Below, piece after piece: positions 1 to 9,457 of a stretch of DNA of 12,233 nt. This stretch comes from Nitrospirota bacterium (lineage in GTDB: Bacteria > Nitrospirota > UBA9217). Made by a program: the position numbers and the translations under genes. Position 1 is the first letter of the stretch. Every line of letters begins with the position of its first letter. The stretch is from positions 1 to 12,233 of the forward strand of contig CAVUHW010000023.1 of the NCBI GenBank assembly GCA_963741205.1, read 5' to 3'. Below the pieces are notes generated by a model. The model had not been told where the DNA came from and did not search any database. It saw nothing but the letters and a program-made list of their open reading frames with translations.

Positions 1-79
1 CCCCTCCTTTGCAAAATACACGAAAAGCAAAAGAGCGGAATCAAACATGATAAACCTGCCCCTGTGATGTGCCTGGAAA

Positions 80-120
80 ATAACATCTTGTTATATTGTT
101 GCGCATATTGTAATATATGC
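80..120 (+). promoter_or_regulatory. Putative sigma70 promoter overlapped by two palindromic operator-like sites
   Basis: TTGTTA (88-93)-17 bp-TAATAT (111-116). Inverted repeats ATAACA-tct-TGTTAT (80-94) and GCATAT-6-ATATGC (103-120). Confidence 0.35.
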
Positions 121-165
121 CACACGCATATCATCGGCCCGGGGGCCAAACTAAGGAGGGTTACA

Positions 166-552
166 ATGAATTCAAAGAAGTTTCTATTCGTGCTGTCCCA
201 TGCAACGTCAAATCCCATGGAAGTGATCGTCATGCTGAAAATTATATCCAATATGAAGGCATTCGACGACGAGGCAGAGATAGCGGTTTTCCTGGTCGGT
301 GAAGGCGTCCAACTCGCGAAAAAAGGAATGGGAAAAACCATAACAATGGAACTGGAAGGCAATATGGTCAATGTCGGCGAACTGCTGGACATGATGCCCG
401 AGTTCAATGTGAAGTTTTACGTCTGCCACGCCTTCATGCCGCTCTTTAGCGTTGCCAAGGAAGAGCTTATCGAAGGTGCGGAGATGAAAGGAAGTTCCTA
501 CCTCGGCGAGCTGCTCCTGGCCGGCTACACTCCTTTTCCGATGGCAATGTAG
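166..552 (+). CDS. DsrE/DsrF-like family protein (128 aa)
   Basis: RBS AAGGAGG (153-159) precedes ATG 166. The protein has the DsrE-type pattern KFLFVLSH...IAVFLVGEGVQLAKK...VKFYVC...ELIEGAE. Confidence 0.8.
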   Translation: MNSKKFLFVLSHATSNPMEVIVMLKIISNMKAFDDEAEIAVFLVGEGVQLAKKGMGKTITMELEGNMVNVGELLDMMPEFNVKFYVCHAFMPLFSVAKEELIEGAEMKGSSYLGELLLAGYTPFPMAM

Positions 553-2215: not shown

Positions 2216-2372
2216 AGTCTGCCCCCAAGTAGTCCTTCACTCATTAAAAAGTATTACCAAGTATGGTAAAGACTGCGTACCTGAACCGGATTTATAATTA
2301 AGTTAGACACACTTTGTTAAAAAGATTTTCATGAGAAGCGCAGCATCAGATGCTTCGCCTGGAGAACAGCAT

Positions 2373-3413
2373 ATGAAAACATATAGTATTGCTGGTGAAG
2401 ACACCGGGACATTGACATTCGGGGACAAACTGCACGACCTCCTGAACAGCCAGATAATTTCACGGCTCATTTATGTCGTCGCAAAGCTTGGCGTCCCTGA
2501 CGTGATGACGGAAGGTGTGATGACTTCAGATCAGATCGCCATTGCCGTAAACGCCGACCCCGGAGCGCTCTACCGCGTCATGCGTACGCTCGCGGCGTAT
2601 GGACTGTTTGCCGAAAAACCGAAAGGCTATTTCGAGCTGACGGAACTCGGGAGTCTGCTTCGGTCCGACCATCCCGATTCGCAGAGGGCATTTGCGATCC
2701 TGGCATGGGAACCCTGGATGCGCGCAGGGTGGGACGGAATCCTTTCAACGGTCTCAACCGGGACAACCGCCTTCAATCGGGTACACGGCATGGGGTTCTT
2801 CGAATACCTGAATAAGCACCCCAACGCGGCCGACCTGTTCAACCGCGCGATGACGAGCCTCACCCGGAAGGAGATCGACTCCATCCTGTCGGTGTACGAC
2901 TTTTCCCGCTTTGCCAAAGTTGCCGACGTGGGAGGAGGCTACGGCGGGTTCCTTGCCGCAATCCTCAAAAAACATCGAAGCGTGGCCGGTATTCTGTTCG
3001 ATCTCCCTCACGTCGTGGAAGGGGCAAAGAACCTGCTGGAAAAGGAAGCAGTGCTCGATCGCTGCACGCTGTCTGCGGGCGACTTTTTTTCCTCGATTAC
3101 GCCGGGAGCGGACGCGTATATCCTGAAGAGCGTCATTCATGACTGGAACGACGAGGAGGCAGTGCGCATTCTCAGGAACTGCCGGGCAGCCGTCCCGGAC
3201 ACAGGGCGGATTCTTGTGATCGAGCGCCTGATCGAAGAGGAAGCCGCGCCATCTCCCGCCAGGATCCTGGACATCGTCATGCTCGTCAATGTGAGCGGCA
3301 AAGAACGAACCGAGGAGGAGTACGGGAGCCTGTTTGCAGATTCGGGTTTCCGCCTGCAGAGGACGATCCCCACGTCGTCAGAGATGAATATCATCGAGGC
3401 AGTGCCGGTGTGA
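2373..3413 (+). CDS. SAM-dependent O-methyltransferase, class 2 (dimerisation domain + Methyltransf_2)
   Basis: GGAG RBS precedes ATG 2373. Motifs VADVGGGYG, LFDLPHVV, GDFF, YILKSVIHDWNDEEA and GKERTEEEY. Confidence 0.93.
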   Translation: MKTYSIAGEDTGTLTFGDKLHDLLNSQIISRLIYVVAKLGVPDVMTEGVMTSDQIAIAVNADPGALYRVMRTLAAYGLFAEKPKGYFELTELGSLLRSDHPDSQRAFAILAWEPWMRAGWDGILSTVSTGTTAFNRVHGMGFFEYLNKHPNAADLFNRAMTSLTRKEIDSILSVYDFSRFAKVADVGGGYGGFLAAILKKHRSVAGILFDLPHVVEGAKNLLEKEAVLDRCTLSAGDFFSSITPGADAYILKSVIHDWNDEEAVRILRNCRAAVPDTGRILVIERLIEEEAAPSPARILDIVMLVNVSGKERTEEEYGSLFADSGFRLQRTIPTSSEMNIIEAVPV

Positions 3414-3536
3414 TTCGATAGTGAAAAAGATCCCGGGGGCCGCAGTGATCGAAAGGACTTTTCCCCCAATCTCTTGCGTCCCCTTTCACTATTTAATAGC
3501 CTGGAAGTCAAGGTGGGTATTTTAAATTGGTGCCAG

Positions 3537-3707
3537 GGGCCGGACAGGCCCTTGGTCTTGGCGAGCTATACGCCTGCCGGGATTCCGCCCCCGACAGGGA
3601 TAAGGAAGAGCATTAACACGGAAAACATGATGGATATTAGCAAAAGTGCCGGCCAAAGGCAAGCGGCGGGGCGGGTTTCGTATTGTGGTATTTGGCTAAG
3701 GCATCTG
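3537..3707 (-). pseudogene. Direct repeat copy 2: truncated, nonsense-mutated 5' fragment of the membrane protein gene with its leader
   Basis: From TTG 3643 it reads LLISIMFSVLMLFLIPVGGGIPAGV* (TTG>TAG at 3566-3568), then LAKTKGL and breaks off near 3537. Confidence 0.85.
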
Positions 3708-3823
3708 AATTGGAGTCTTAATTCTGATTTGTCAACAAATGAGATTTTACTCCAATTCGCTCCGATGTTAAGCAGTAATTCAGAGAAAAGTCCAACAGTA
3801 TGGACCCTAAGAAGTTTGGTGCC

Positions 3824-4911
3824 CTACACATTAAACCTGAAATTGATCATATCCCCGTCCTTTACTTCATAGGTCTTTCCCTCGAGCCTGAAATGCCCTT
3901 TTTCCCGTGCCGCATGTATACTGCCCGTGGCAATAAAATCATCATAGGAAACGATCTCCGCCCGTATAAAACCTCTCTCGATATCCGAATGTATCCTGCC
4001 TGCCGCCTGCTGTGCATTCATGCCCTTTTCTATGGTCCAGGCCCTGACCTCGTCTTCACCGTAGGTCAAAAAAGATATCAGGCCGAGCAGGTCATACGAA
4101 ACACGGATAAGCTTGTTCAGCGCCGGCTCCTTGATGCCGAGGTCGTCAAGAAAAGCCTTCGCCTCGTCGGGAGAAAGCTGGGCTATCTCCATCTCGATCT
4201 TCCCGCACATGCTCAAGACCGTCACCTGCCGCCCTTTGAACAATGACTGAAGATCAGAGACCGTCTTGTTGGTTGTTTCCGAATTCACTTCCTGTTCAGC
4301 GACGTTCAGCACAACGACCTCGGGCTTGATGCGACATGAACTGCAGATGGCGCATGGCCTTCAGGTCCTCCCCGGAAAAATCCGCATCCCGGAGCGGCTT
4401 CTCGGATTCCAATATCTCCCTGCATTTGAGCAAGAGCTTCTTTTCGCCCTCATCAGGCTTCTTTCCCCTCTTCTGGCCCTGCTCCATCCGCTCCAGCCGT
4501 TTCTCGACCAGTTCAAGATCGCCGAAGATCATCTCCATCTCCAATCGTCTGGGCATCTCTCTGCGGGTCGACCGTGCCCATGGGATGGGGCACTGACTCG
4601 TCCTGAAAGCCCCTCACAACATGCACGAGCGCGTCTGCATCCTTGACAAGGTCGAACACCTTCCGGTTCTGCTCCATGTCGCCCTTGGTCAGTCCGATAT
4701 AATCAACATACTCAACCGTTGCATAGGTGGTCTTCTTCGGCTTGTATATCTCCGAAAGCTTGTCGATCCTGCTGTCCGGCACCTTTACGACGCCATGATG
4801 AGGTTCTGCTGTCACGGTAGCATAGACCGTCGTCTCCAAATTCAGACCCGTAAAGGCATTAAATATCGTTGTCTTTCCTGAATTCGCAAGTCCCGTAATG
4901 GCTATCTTCAT
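3824..4911 (-). CDS. ychF: Redox-regulated ATPase YchF (Obg family), split by two +1 frameshifts (~4551, ~4331); sequencing error or pseudogene
   Basis: GLANSGKTT P-loop, VKVPDSRIDKLS, YVDYIGL, ADALVHVVRGF, EVRAWTI, AGRIHSDIERGFIRAE and EGKTYEVKDGDMINFRFNV. AAGGAG RBS. Removing 2 nt gives 361 codons. Confidence 0.92.
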
Positions 4912-6432: not shown

Positions 6433-7338
6433 ATGATCATAAGCGCAAGCAGAAGAACCGATATACCTGCTTTTTACAGCGACTGGTTCCTGAAACGCAT
6501 TGAAGAGGGTTTCGTAATGGTTCGGAACCCCATGAACCCCCGTCAGGTCAGCAAGGTTTCTTTGGAGCCGGGAGCGGTGGATTGCATCGTCTTTTGGACC
6601 AAGAACCCTGCGAACATGATCGGTAAGCTCACGTACCTTGAGGAAAGAAAGTACAGCTACTACTTCCAGTTCACCCTTACGCCGTACAACAAAACGATCG
6701 AACCGAATCTGGCGCCTAAAGATGACGTGATCTCAACCTTTATCGCGCTGTCTGAGCGGATCGGCAAGGAGCGGGTTATCTGGCGGTACGATCCGATTCT
6801 TTTCACGAATGAGCTGGACAGGGAATATCACTACCAGTCCTTCGAATCCCTGGCAGGGAAACTGGCGGGCCATACCGATAAGTGCGTCATCAGTTTCGTG
6901 GATTTCTACGCAAAATGCCGTAAGCGGCTTACGAGCCTGAACGCCAGAGAGATAACCCGGGAGGATATGTACGCCGTCGCGCGTGCCTTTGCCGGCATAG
7001 GAAAAGCACAGGGTATAAAGATCGAGACGTGCGCTGAAGAAGCCGATCTTTCGGAGTTTGGTATTGTCCATGGGAAGTGCATCGACGATGGGCTTATTGC
7101 AAGGATCACCGGACGGCAGCTTGAGGTGAGGAAGGACAAATCGCAGCGAGAACTATGCGGCTGCGTCGCCAGTTTCGATGTGGGCGCTTACAATACATGC
7201 TTTTTTAACTGTCTTTATTGCTACGCGAACAATGGCAAGGAGGTGGTAACGGAGAAGACCGCAAACCATAAACGAGAGTCCCCCCTGATGAAGGGCGACT
7301 TAGAAGATAGCGACAATGTTTGTCTTAAAACCAGTTAA
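6433..7338 (+). CDS. DUF1848 domain-containing protein (radical-SAM-like CxxxCxxC at the C-terminus)
   Basis: Family signatures MIISASRRTDIPAFYSDWF, VFWTKNP, WRYDPI, CAE, CID, CGC and YNTCFFNCLYCYAN. Confidence 0.92.
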   Translation: MIISASRRTDIPAFYSDWFLKRIEEGFVMVRNPMNPRQVSKVSLEPGAVDCIVFWTKNPANMIGKLTYLEERKYSYYFQFTLTPYNKTIEPNLAPKDDVISTFIALSERIGKERVIWRYDPILFTNELDREYHYQSFESLAGKLAGHTDKCVISFVDFYAKCRKRLTSLNAREITREDMYAVARAFAGIGKAQGIKIETCAEEADLSEFGIVHGKCIDDGLIARITGRQLEVRKDKSQRELCGCVASFDVGAYNTCFFNCLYCYANNGKEVVTEKTANHKRESPLMKGDLEDSDNVCLKTS

Positions 7339-7525
7339 CTTATTTCCTGCCATTCTCCCCTTTCTGAACTCCATTATTTTATCCCTACGAGACGGTAATC
7401 GACAATTGTAACACCGCAAGACCTGATAATCATATAAAGGGCACCTCCAGAGCATACCAGAACGGTTAAGCTCTGATATGCTCTTGGGAAAGACGACCAA
7501 TCTTACCAATCCCAGGAGGTGCTTT

Positions 7526-8616
7526 ATGAGATTGTACACAGGAATTGATCTGCATTCAAGCAACAGTTATCTGGCGATCATCGATGAAACCGGTAAGCGG
7601 GCTATTCAAGAAGAAGCTGCCGAATGATCCGGGACAGATCATTTCGAGCCCTGCGCCATACAAGGATACGACATTACCGGTATCGTCGTCGAGTCTACGT
7701 ACAACTGGTACTGGCTGGTGGATGCTGCTCATGGCGGAGGGATACAAGGTGCATCTCGCCAACCCCAGCGGCGATCACAGAAATATACCGGGCTCAAGTA
7801 TTCAGATGATCAGCATGATGCCTTTTGGCTGGCCGAAATGCTGCGACTCGGCATCCTGCCCGAAGGCTACATTTATCCGAAAGAAGACCGACCGATCCGC
7901 GACTTGTTGCGCAAACGAAGTCATCTGGTAAGGCTCAGGACTTCGCTCATCATCAGCCTGCAGAACATCGTCTGCCGCAACAACGGGTTAGGCTCAAAGA
8001 CGAACGACGTCAAGGCATTGAAGACGGACCGGGTTGCGCCGTTTCTCGCGGAGAACGAAGACCTGGCTTTGGCCGGCAAGGTCAGCAAGGAGTACCATAG
8101 ATTTTCTGACCCGTCAAGATCAAAACCATTGAGACGTTATCGAAGGGAAAGGTGGAACTGCGCGAACCATACAAAAATCTCCTCACGTTCCAGGCAGTCG
8201 GTAAGATTCTGGGACTTACCATCATGCTGGAGACCGGCCCGATCAGCCGCTTTCGAGAAAGTCGGCAACTATTGCTTCCTACTGCCGGAAAGGTTTCGAG
8301 CAAATGGATCAGCAACGATAAGGCGAAAGGCAAAGGGAACAAGAAAAGCGGCAACAAGTATCTGGCGTGGGCCTTTTCCGAAGCTGCCGAGATCGCCCGG
8401 CGCTATTATCCGAAGGCCCGGGCATATTACAACCGCAAGATGCAGAAGACCAACTTCATGATAGCGCATCAAGCCCTGGCCCACAAACTGGCGCGGGCGG
8501 CATATTACATCATGAGGGATCAAGTGCCGTTCATGCCGGAGAAGATGTTTACACAGAGTCATAGGCTGGCTGGGACGGTGAACCTGACTTGGGGTTGGCA
8601 AAACCACGAGACCTGA
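7526..8616 (+). pseudogene. IS110-family DEDD recombinase/transposase with multiple frameshifts
   Basis: AGGAGG RBS precedes ATG 7526. Pieces across frames: MRLYTGIDLHS, IVVESTYNWYW, KYSDDQHDAFWLA, DRPIRDLLRKR, WISNDKAKGKGNKKSGNKYLAWAFSEAA and ALAHKLARAAYYIM. The true 3' end is probably near 8555. Confidence 0.88.
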
Positions 8617-8937
8617 TTGGTAATCCGTCCCACCCTTTATATATAGCGTTATCAGCATCTTTACTGCCCATGCCGTGAGCCATCTTGGGGCTGGTTAACA
8701 ACCATGAGACCTGTACAATCATTGGACACGGCATGGAACCGAAGATTTTCTGGTCCGCCATAAGGCGGAAAGGGTCATGGATAAAGAGCTTCACCAATGA
8801 CCTTAATCCTGATGGGTGACTGGTGCAGTGAAGACTGACACCGAAACCGAATGAAACTGCGGCAATGGTAAGGATGAAGATAACGAAAAGGCTCGGCGAG
8901 AAACGTTCCGTTTCTCGCCACAAGATAGCTTTTTTCG
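8571..8937 (+). ncRNA. Putative bridge/seek RNA: two target-binding loops + one donor-binding loop
   Basis: Three units of the form GA(A/G)CCN-guide-TGG...CC(A/T)-guide-..TGG at 8571-8632, 8668-8736 and 8736-8823. The guides match the target and the donor junction. Confidence 0.75.
8884..8937 (+). terminator. Strong hairpin closing the IS 3' non-coding region
   Basis: GGCGAGAAACG-ttc-CGTTTCTCGCC (8895-8919) sits within CGAAAAGGCT/AGCTTTTTTCG. Confidence 0.55.
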
Positions 8938-9055
8938 CTTGACGGTGCCCTTTAAATGGGTGACCCTCATGATTCCCTTAACCCTAAAGGTTCCCTTTTC
9001 AGACACAATGTCCCGGAGTTGTACTTTCCACCCGGCGATTCAAGCGGCAAGAGAT

Positions 9056-9457
9056 CTACTTCATTTTGAGCCCGCCGTTCGCCGGGGAATATTCTCCGAG
9101 CTTCTTCCCGGTCTTCTGGTCGATGACCAGAACAATATTCTTTTGCGGATCTTCTGTTTTATAATAGGCCCAGACCGCATTGAGGATCTGTTCCTTCTCT
9201 TCGATCGATAACTCGATGAATTGCCGGCCGACCAACACGCGGGTAACGGGACTATTGTCCTCGATCTTGGAAATGATGCCGAGTTTGATCGTGTCCTTTA
9301 TAAAGGCGAGTCTTTTCTGCTGCAATTCCGGATCGCCACGATGCGCTGTTTTTTTGTTTGCTGAAGTCGCCTGGGGAAAGGCCTTCCCGTTCGCTGCGAT
9401 TAAAACGACAACCAATCCGATCCCGAGAAACCGTGTCCATCTGAAAGACAAATGCAT
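9056..9457 (-). CDS. Hypothetical exported protein (133 aa)
   Basis: GGAG upstream, N-terminal signal/TM segment FLGIGLVVVLIAA, and protein-like composition. Confidence 0.7.
   Translation of the reverse strand: MHLSFRWTRFLGIGLVVVLIAANGKAFPQATSANKKTAHRGDPELQQKRLAFIKDTIKLGIISKIEDNSPVTRVLVGRQFIELSIEEKEQILNAVWAYYKTEDPQKNIVLVIDQKTGKKLGEYSPANGGLKMK

Follow-up and report, generated by a model that had tools for sequence, protein, structure and literature searches.

An IS1111-type element with three related guide units

The sequence analysed here, hereafter the window, is the whole of contig C23 (12,233 nucleotides, nt) of an 84%-complete, 50-contig assembly of a Nitrospirota bacterium (GenBank GCA_963741205.1, contig CAVUHW010000023.1). 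It carries an IS1111-type insertion sequence (IS) whose transposase gene is followed by a non-coding region with three hairpin units, U1, U2 and U3, that compose a putative bridge RNA, or seekRNA (Table 1). U1 has the features of a target loop and U3 those of a donor loop. U2, placed between them, is a hairpin paralogous to the target loop; it is conserved among relatives, is supported by compensatory changes in its stems, and co-varies both with U1 and with the DNA flanking the element.

Both IS junctions contain the dinucleotide TG (7424-7425 and 8961-8962). The left one reads AAGACC-TG/ATAATC (7418-7431) and the right one ATGGG-TG/ACCCT (8956-8967), and an uninterrupted target, AAGACCTGACCCTAAG, is found on contig C24 of the same genome. 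Insertion was therefore site-specific and without target duplication beyond the TG common to both junctions, as in the IS1111 group. The subterminal inverted repeats (10 bp each) fall within the 7-17 bp of that group, and the left end of about 100 nt (7426-7525) and the intact right non-coding region of about 400 nt (8565-8962) follow its layout.

Reading of the transposase gene switches frame repeatedly. PF02371 was nevertheless recognized at 8173-8430 (40.4 bits, above its cut-off), and PF01548 on a 104-amino-acid (aa) fragment, with an E value of 9.7e-5 that is under its cut-off; homologues, up to 90% identical, are intact at 339-340 aa and have both domains, as expected of a DEDD transposase of the IS110 family, IS1111 group. 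When aligned with the gene of locus L010, which is intact at 342 aa (88% nt identity), the window gene has about nine extra stretches of 1-2 nt and none missing. Such one-sided extra bases could be a local assembly error rather than decay; because the neighbouring genes are intact, the two are not distinguishable.

The three units have a frame in common: GARCC, strand A, TGG, one or more distal hairpins, CCW, strand B, then TG-x-TGG. The scaffolds of U1 and U2 are alike (GARCC...TGG...CCA...TTGG). Two copies of the composite CTTGGGGYTGG-N4-8-CCAYGAGACCTG lie in the window (8588-8615 and 8684-8713), where 200 shuffles gave an expectation of 0.00, and GAGACCTG alone is likewise present twice, where 0.32 would be expected. 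A preliminary description of this DNA had quoted ten motifs, all of which lie exactly where it had placed them, and its proposal of an IS1111-type element with a guide RNA at the 3' end is supported. No Rfam family matched 7300-9100 at E up to 1.

Table 1. Coordinates of the element, its guide-RNA parts and the other genes of the window.
Feature	Position	Strand	Basis or remark
IS1111-type insertion sequence	7426..8962	+	junction and repeat sequences; alignment of both ends with relatives
Left subterminal inverted repeat AAAGGGCACC	7436..7445	+	10 bp; partner GGTGCCCTTT at 8944-8953
DEDD transposase gene, several frame breaks	7526..8564	+	stop TAG 8562-8564 in the family reading frame
U1, putative target-binding loop, seekRNA-like hairpin	8565..8636	+	stem covariation, guide-to-flank matches
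U1 outer stem	8571-8578/8625-8632		
U1 CC/GG clamp	8583-8584/8619-8620		
U1 right-target guide	8585-8595		
U1 inner hairpin	8596-8606		
U1 left-target guide AGACC	8609-8613		
U1 core TG	8614-8615		
U1 handshake AT	8616-8617		
Helix L, long-range	8647-8658 (in 8647..8666) with 8874-8885	+	5' and 3' strands; encloses U2 and U3
CTTTACTG	8659-8666	+	partner 8826-8833 (helix P) or 8867-8873 (alternative)
U2, extra hairpin paralogous to the target loop	8668..8736	+	covariance model, stem counts, flank co-variation
U2 outer stem	8668-8677/8727-8736		
U2 5' guide-like strand	8682-8691		
U2 inner hairpin	8692-8704		
U2 3' strand AGACC	8707-8711		
U2 TG	8712-8713		
U2 variable A-rich insert	8714-8720		
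U2 ATTGG	8721-8725		
U3, putative donor-binding multiloop	8737..8833	+	match to circle junction; compensatory pairs in both hairpins
U3 right-donor guide strand GAAGATTTTC	8741-8750		
U3 hairpins	8754-8769, 8772-8803		
U3 left-donor guide ATGGG	8812-8816		
U3 core TG	8817-8818		
U3 handshake AC	8819-8820		
U3 closing strand CAGTGAAG	8826-8833		
Hairpin GGCGAGAAACG/CGTTTCTCGCC (8895-8919), then T run (8930-8935)	8895..8935	+	kept in relatives and in the C24 solo right end
-35 hexamer TTGACG (8939-8944) and 17-nt spacer	8939..8962	+	read directly from the sequence
DsrE-like protein	1-552	+	
O-methyltransferase	2331-3413	+	
IS200-like Y1 transposase, 282 aa	4960-5808	-	
DUF1848 protein	6433-7338	+	directly upstream of the IS

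The second loop is conserved among relatives

With an alignment of 13 intact transposases, 160 relatives were fetched (80 loci from species genomes and 80 from metagenomes, among the matches listed), and a covariance model of U2, R1, was built from 110 distinct sequences. The 426-nt non-coding region of the window had blastn matches in 134 of the 160. R1 found U2 in 145 (78 genome loci and 67 metagenome loci), always one per element. Eleven of the 15 misses end at a contig edge before U2. Among the others, the U2 of L147 contains about 100 nt of inserted sequence, L124 is truncated, and L024 and L070 are degenerate and lack U1 as well. R1 also found U2 in elements on two finished plasmids of Burkholderiales, from Paraburkholderia (L163, 49 bits) and Burkholderia ubonensis (L164, 41 bits), with transposase identities of 51% and 48%. 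U1 was cross-matched weakly (26 and 25.5 bits), as paralogues should be.

Given the incompleteness and fragmentation of the assembly and the many small extra bases in the adjoining transposase gene, it had to be considered whether the second loop arose through misassembly or through a duplication private to this contig. This explanation deserves next to no credence: the same hairpin is present in 145 independently assembled relatives and in the two finished plasmids, and the non-coding region of the window is 92-95% identical to four loci in other Nitrospirota assemblies. Because they are conserved family-wide, the three units are due neither to chance nor to misassembly, contrary to the proviso about an artefact in the preliminary description.

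The number of loops did not vary. Double R1 matches in L003, L005 and L049 correspond to second or partial IS copies, no element had two U2, and a fourth unit was never seen in the 145 loci. The possibility that loop number varies is thus not borne out; the three-loop layout is the rule for this IS1111 clade, and is ancient, rather than a variable-length array. The earlier idea of duplicated target loops holds as far as U2 is a paralogue of U1, and fails as far as a recent copy was meant, U2 being ancient and its scaffold better conserved than that of U1.

R1 detected no U2 in an archaeal relative at 31% identity, nor in ten other IS110-family loci (L167-L176) of the source genome. With the protein P0001 as query, tblastn on plasmids yielded an ISEc11-family copy (L177) and an enterobacterial IS110-family copy (L178) only when E values of up to 5 were allowed. 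Neither has repeated guide words or an R1 match (with filters off, the best score was 12.1 bits, E 0.3, outside any non-coding tail), two tests that a U2 with another scaffold and a match of 4-5 nt would escape.

Several relatives have unusual structures. In L024 (2190-2295) and L070 (2510-2830) the transposase gene looks intact and the guide-RNA region is deleted, L024 retaining just the hairpin and the right end and L070 just the 3' donor strand; to judge from these remains, both could move only with RNA supplied in trans. In L049, the non-coding region is followed after about 1 kb by a second, partial copy (U2 and U3, 3672-3847), the interval being free of any transposase gene; this copy may be truncated or resemble a miniature inverted-repeat transposable element. 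At the right end of L003 (1390-1510) the last 14-15 nt are tandemly duplicated, a terminal duplication also seen in L013, L100 and L030. This right end abuts a truncated second IS copy starting exactly at U2 (TG/CCCATGCC), and because the U1 guides of L003 resemble that internal site, it looks like an insertion of one IS into another. L060, on a contig binned as a Methanosarcinaceae archaeon, is a full member, with U1, U2 and U3, of this otherwise bacterial clade, through either mis-binning or transfer.

U2 is a branch of the donor multiloop

The structure of the whole RNA was derived from 37 diverse sequences, for which RNAalifold and our own pair counts agreed. Overall, 93.7% of cells were paired and 35 of 57 pairs had changed on both sides, values reached by none of 500 shuffles; controls with slid strands were 30-43% paired. 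U1 is a free-standing hairpin directly after the stop codon (99.3% of cells paired, six of eight outer pairs compensatory). Helix L had compensatory changes at nine of its ten pairs, and both hairpins of U3 also had compensatory pairs.

For U2, examined in 110 sequences, 92.5% of cells were paired, against 87.9% after shuffling, and the observed pairing was reached by 0 of 500 shuffles. Changes on both sides were seen in 75 cells, against 19 in shuffles, and affected 10 of the 17 pairs. U2 adjoins the right-donor guide strand with no linker (CATGG/AACC-GAAGATTTTC) and branches off the donor multiloop at its 5' shoulder, in agreement with a remark in section 12 of PMC11208160, which places the donor guides of IS1111 elements in a multiloop. 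The two pairings available to CTTTACTG, one closing the multiloop and the other extending helix L, are mutually exclusive, are conserved to the same degree and fit about equally well; they may be alternative conformations of the donor domain.

The preliminary description had seen tandem units here, and hence a miniature of the tandem interspaced guide RNA (TIGR) arrays, or an intermediate between bridge RNAs and multi-guide arrays. The units do resemble those arrays, as presented in the text of PMC12045711, in that short conserved motifs flank dual guides of 9-11 nt. That text likens IS110 bridge RNAs to two fused tigRNAs, its discussion calling the bridge RNA "a single two-stem unit", and relates the Nop domain of Tas structurally to the domain with which IS110 transposases bind RNA. 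In contrast to a regular array of many units in variable number, the present RNA never has more than three, each with conserved stems of its own that are unlike those of the others. U2 is nested in the U3 multiloop rather than set in a row, two units are aimed at one site and not at different ones (see below), and the adjacent gene encodes an IS110-family transposase, not a Tas effector. An array, or a step towards one, is therefore very improbable.

U1 and U2 both follow the target

Both IS ends were located in the relatives and the loops were then compared with the flanks. Over 76 dereplicated loci, the contiguous match between guide and flank averaged 5.04 (left) and 5.36 (right) for U1, against 2.58 and 2.25 when shuffled. 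For U2 it was 4.24 and 2.95, against 2.65 and 1.74 (maxima of 200 shuffles, 3.04 and 2.17), in controls that leave the relatedness of the loci in place. By position, over 82 loci, the 3' strand of U1 equals the left target from -1 to -5 at frequencies of 0.77-0.88 (0.36-0.50 shuffled) and then the core, and its 5' strand pairs with right-target positions 0 to about 6. The 3' strand of U2 equals the same left-target positions, -1 to -5, at 0.84, 0.74, 0.66, 0.63 and 0.65 (shuffled: 0.40, 0.33, 0.42, 0.46 and 0.56), and its 5' strand pairs only with positions 0-3 of the right target. U1 thus has what defines the target loop of a bridge RNA, that is, left target plus core on one strand and the complement of the right target on the other, co-varying with the flanks.

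U3 spans both IS ends across the circle junction, as a donor loop does: its ATGGGTG is the IS right end, and its strand GATTTTC matches the left end with one mismatch. That U1 and U2 spell the target and U3 the donor junction, with this mismatch, had been noted before and is correct; the mismatch is conserved in the family, and the match is perfect in L060 and L044. The left-donor guide follows variants of the end (GGATG in the L008 group, GGGAG in L043). The element therefore departs from the plan of exactly two guide loops, having three with a common scaffold, the third of which, U2, is conserved.

To lessen the effect of relatedness, independent contrasts were made with 43 non-overlapping nearest pairs, judged on scaffold columns only. 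Changes at the same position occurred in both loops in 35 cases, in U1 only in 59, in U2 only in 50 and in neither in 286 (odds ratio 3.4, Fisher p = 7e-6), so that joint changes exceeded expectation. Of the 35 joint changes, 21 were identical in U1 and U2. Between L008 and L006, for instance, at a scaffold distance of 0.01, AAATG became AAGTG in U1, in U2 and in the flank alike, and in the L120 clade the 3' strand is 1 nt shorter in both loops. The co-variation of guides with insertion flanks, which had been named as the test of the initial interpretation, is thus found across relatives (76 and 82 loci, 43 pairs), and loop 2 is likewise present there. The coupling of U2 to the target is real but loose.

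Handshakes are found in U1 and U3

The core proposed earlier was TGA. Alignment of relatives kept its first two bases as the common core and removed the third: the next A opens the right target on one side and the left end of the IS on the other. Immediately after the core, loops U1 and U3 carry a dinucleotide, or handshake, that matches the partner molecule. In U3 this dinucleotide equals right-target positions 0-1 in 49 of 56 loci, where shuffles gave a mean of 20.3 and a maximum of 28. In U1 it is identical to the dinucleotide that begins the IS left end in 70 of 72 loci, and is almost invariant; L016, the only locus with AA after the core of U1, has AA at its left end too. The dinucleotide of U2 matches the IS left end in only 2 of 74 loci and the right target in 4 of 74. 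To judge from these matches, the handshakes would mark U1 and U3 as the exchange-competent pair, U2 being different in kind. The equivalence of the two target-like loops implied by the preliminary description was not confirmed, as U2 corresponds to the right target over fewer positions, tracks the target less closely and is without a handshake.

The core itself is not immutable. U1 has CG as its core in L053, L151 and L161, in which U2 and U3 keep TG, and both junctions of L053 are CG; L043 has AG in all three loops and at both junctions. Therefore the core can change, sometimes in one loop only.

In the window, 7 of 8 positions agree between the IS left end, ATAATCAT, and the insert that follows the core of U2, ACAATCAT. 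As a family-wide left-end guide, however, the insert was rejected: over 93 distinct inserts the mean best match was 4.61 of 8, against 4.47 when shuffled (standard deviation 0.07, maximum 4.67), and scrambled queries scored higher (5.24).

This insert bears on the possibility that what U2 reads is not a fresh target. U2 might, for example, recognize the occupied junctions in the course of excision, or serve as a regulatory decoy, retaining the recombinase or target-like DNA with no exchange taking place and thereby adjusting directionality or copy number. The position of U2 beside the donor guides is favourable to this, since between them U2 and U3 have guides for all four half-sites present in the integrated state, and the absence of a handshake suits a loop that is not for productive exchange, given the role of handshakes described in section 11 of PMC11208158 and in the text of PMC13626964. 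The likeness of the window insert to the left end would fit as well, but it is not family-wide, and no feature separates this explanation from that of a loop reading fresh targets. We regard it as unlikely.

A proposed three-module bridge RNA

We lean, with little more than even confidence, to the view that U2 is a second target-reading loop, bound by the recombinase and tethered to the donor loop, in a three-module bridge RNA. In the mechanism proposed, U1 would be the main target loop, its 5' strand pairing over about 7 nt with the right target's top strand and its 3' strand presenting the left target (5 nt), TG and a 2-nt handshake that fits the IS left end. U3 would be the donor multiloop, with a handshake fitting the right target. 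U2, between the closing helix and the right-donor guide strand, would read left-target positions -5 to -1, TG and right-target positions 0 to 3. Because its guides are short and it has no handshake, capture, checking or restraint is suggested for U2 rather than catalysis of exchange: at low stringency, it may capture or check the target core and would not drive strand exchange. The sequence comparisons show the anatomy of the RNA, its conservation, its secondary structure and the co-variation of U2 with U1 and the flanks; that U2 binds DNA or protein, and what part it has in the reaction, we infer.

U1 would then be a detachable loop of high specificity, the equivalent of the short seekRNA. 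In the sections of PMC11187229 that describe them, the stop codon of IS1111 elements is followed by a short RNA of 82-96 nt, and there is also a long form, of 145-170 nt, without known role. The place and size of U1 fit the short form, and the distance from U1 through U2, about 170 nt, is in the size class of the long one. Contigs of relatives in four metatranscriptome libraries (80% likeness) span U1, U2 and U3, with carry-over of DNA possible. One of these contigs has a joint from 8635 to 8722, explained most simply if the 3' sides of U1 and U2, being similar, were cross-aligned. A search of sequencing runs returned none with half of the sampled words.

Several results weigh against a target-reading role for U2. 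At discordant positions the flank agrees with U1 more often than with U2 (68 vs 27 on the left, 39 vs 16 on the right), and 109 of the 144 positions changed in the 43 pairs were altered in one loop only. The relatedness left in the shuffle controls, the missing handshake of U2, the broken reading frame of the window transposase and the restriction of the RNA-library data to contigs of relatives count on the same side. Moreover, a short one-loop RNA sufficed for transposition of ISEc11, as section 10 of PMC11187229 reports; since it suffices, and since the ISEc11-family copy shows no U2, a third loop is not a general requirement of IS1111 elements.

Some of these observations would be accounted for if U2 served the donor multiloop only as part of its architecture or as a site of protein binding, having originated long ago as a copy of the target loop and since lost the pairing of its guide-like strands with DNA. 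Its likeness to the target would then be a legacy of this origin, or U1 and U2 would be held alike by now and then exchanging sequence. The precedence of U1 at discordant positions, the lack of a handshake and the sufficiency of the one-loop RNA of ISEc11 (PMC11187229) all agree with this, as do the conservation of the U2 scaffold, which is better than that of its guide-like strands, and the distal positions of U2, which stay near the family consensus while U1 diverges. The core-proximal positions of U2, in contrast, change with U1 and the flank in independent close pairs such as L008 and L006, and the shortening of the 3' strand in the L120 clade concerns both loops. The anchors common to U1 and U2 are, in addition, only 3-5 nt long and would be a poor substrate for gene conversion. 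On balance we find a purely architectural hairpin rather improbable.

Beyond this element, we propose only tentatively that a large IS1111 clade, found in Nitrospirota, Desulfobacterota, Burkholderiales and others, uses a three-loop RNA in which two loops read one target, U1 being detachable and provided with a handshake and U2 donor-fused with short guides.

Comparison with known systems

The closest known systems are the bridge RNAs or seekRNAs of ISEc11, ISPa11 and ISKpn4 (PMC11187229, PMC11208160). According to the text of these papers, the following are common to them and the window element: a DEDD transposase of about 340 aa with a long downstream non-coding region, subterminal inverted repeats, site-specific insertion without duplication, a junction promoter expected on circularisation, a hairpin starting at the stop codon, a top-strand match 5' of the bottom-strand match (PMC11187229, sections 8, 9 and 14) and donor guides in a multiloop. 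The window element differs in having a third conserved internal-loop hairpin, U2, with target-like strands. Its non-coding region is about 400 nt long, whereas the ISEc11-family copy L177, in which U2 was not detected, has about 280 nt from the stop to the right end. The IS1111 texts speak of one target and one donor loop, or of a short and a long RNA. No second target loop or third loop is mentioned in the literature text searched, as distinct from figures and supplements, in which such hairpins may be drawn; to that extent, the check on whether three-loop IS1111 RNAs are already a known norm, as the preliminary description had allowed, leaves its claim of novelty standing.

In IS621, of the IS110 group (Durrant 2024; PMC11208158, PMC13626964), the parts of the text that describe the bridge RNA likewise present a bispecific RNA, a 2-nt core common to donor and target, and 2-nt handshake guides that match the non-cognate partner; here the handshake of U1 matches the IS left end and that of U3 the right target. 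Unlike IS621, the window RNA lies 3' of the gene, its strand order is mirrored, its donor loop is a multiloop, and it has an additional target-like loop without handshake. The handshakes extend the left and not the right guides, and are thus the mirror image of those in section 11 of PMC11208158. For CazIS110-1 (bioRxiv 10.1101/2025.10.25.684509), the text puts forward a similar idea of two RNA species, an abundant RNA with only the target loop and a full bridge RNA. Both of its RNAs share one target loop, whereas in the window element U1 and the U2-U3 domain would each have their own.

Bridge RNAs and seekRNAs are being developed as programmable guides of recombinases, with two loops as the working model. 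If a clade keeps a third loop that tracks the target, the rules for reprogramming IS1111 elements may be incomplete, and the unexplained long seekRNA and the donor multiloop would gain a concrete component. Retargeting of these recombinases, in nature or by engineers, would need coordinated changes in two loops, and the element might run two RNA-guided routes, one with the target-loop-only RNA and one with the full bridge domain, from a single transcript. The clade would also provide a natural experiment on a guide loop free of handshake, be it for capture, proofreading or control of directionality. Although not an array itself, the set of U1 to U3 shows guide modules duplicating and specialising within one RNA, which bears on the kinship of bridge RNAs, tigRNAs and box C/D RNAs.

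Other features of the window and of the source genome

Pfam gave no match for the open reading frames at 3474-4646. Two words identical to stem strands of U1 and U2, an 8-mer and a 10-mer (TGGGACGG at 2730 and CACGGCATGG at 2784), lie inside the methyltransferase gene and were judged to be chance occurrences. Downstream of U3, a strict terminator scan of 7380-9020 called none, the hairpin at 8895-8919 included.

Junction promoters are known for the IS1111 family (PMC11187229, section 4). On circularisation of the window element, G8962 would join ATAAT (7426-7430) to give a -10 box, GATAAT, which with the -35 hexamer of Table 1 makes up a predicted junction promoter.

In the source genome, at least 13 further Transposase_20 matches come from other IS110-family elements, and a target-like site, CAGACCTGACCCTTAGG, lies on contig C45 about 200 nt downstream of one of them (L168, 2090-2110). 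The pattern AGACCTGACCCYNAG was fitted, with at most one mismatch, by 18 sites of the host genome, against 1 for a control pattern, and these sites are clustered on contigs C24 and C26. The target of the element is therefore a dispersed or tandem host repeat. The right flank of the IS (8961-9000) has two tandem units of about 18 nt, ACCCTCATGATTCCCTTA and ACCCTAAAGGTTCCCTTT. On the minus strand of contig C24 (L002, 1490-1620), a solo IS right end of about 90 nt, 87% identical to window positions 8875-8967, stands directly after an intact target, AAGACCTG, with a direct copy of TGACCCTAAGAGGTTCCT on either side; the arrangement suggests a remnant within a tandem host repeat.

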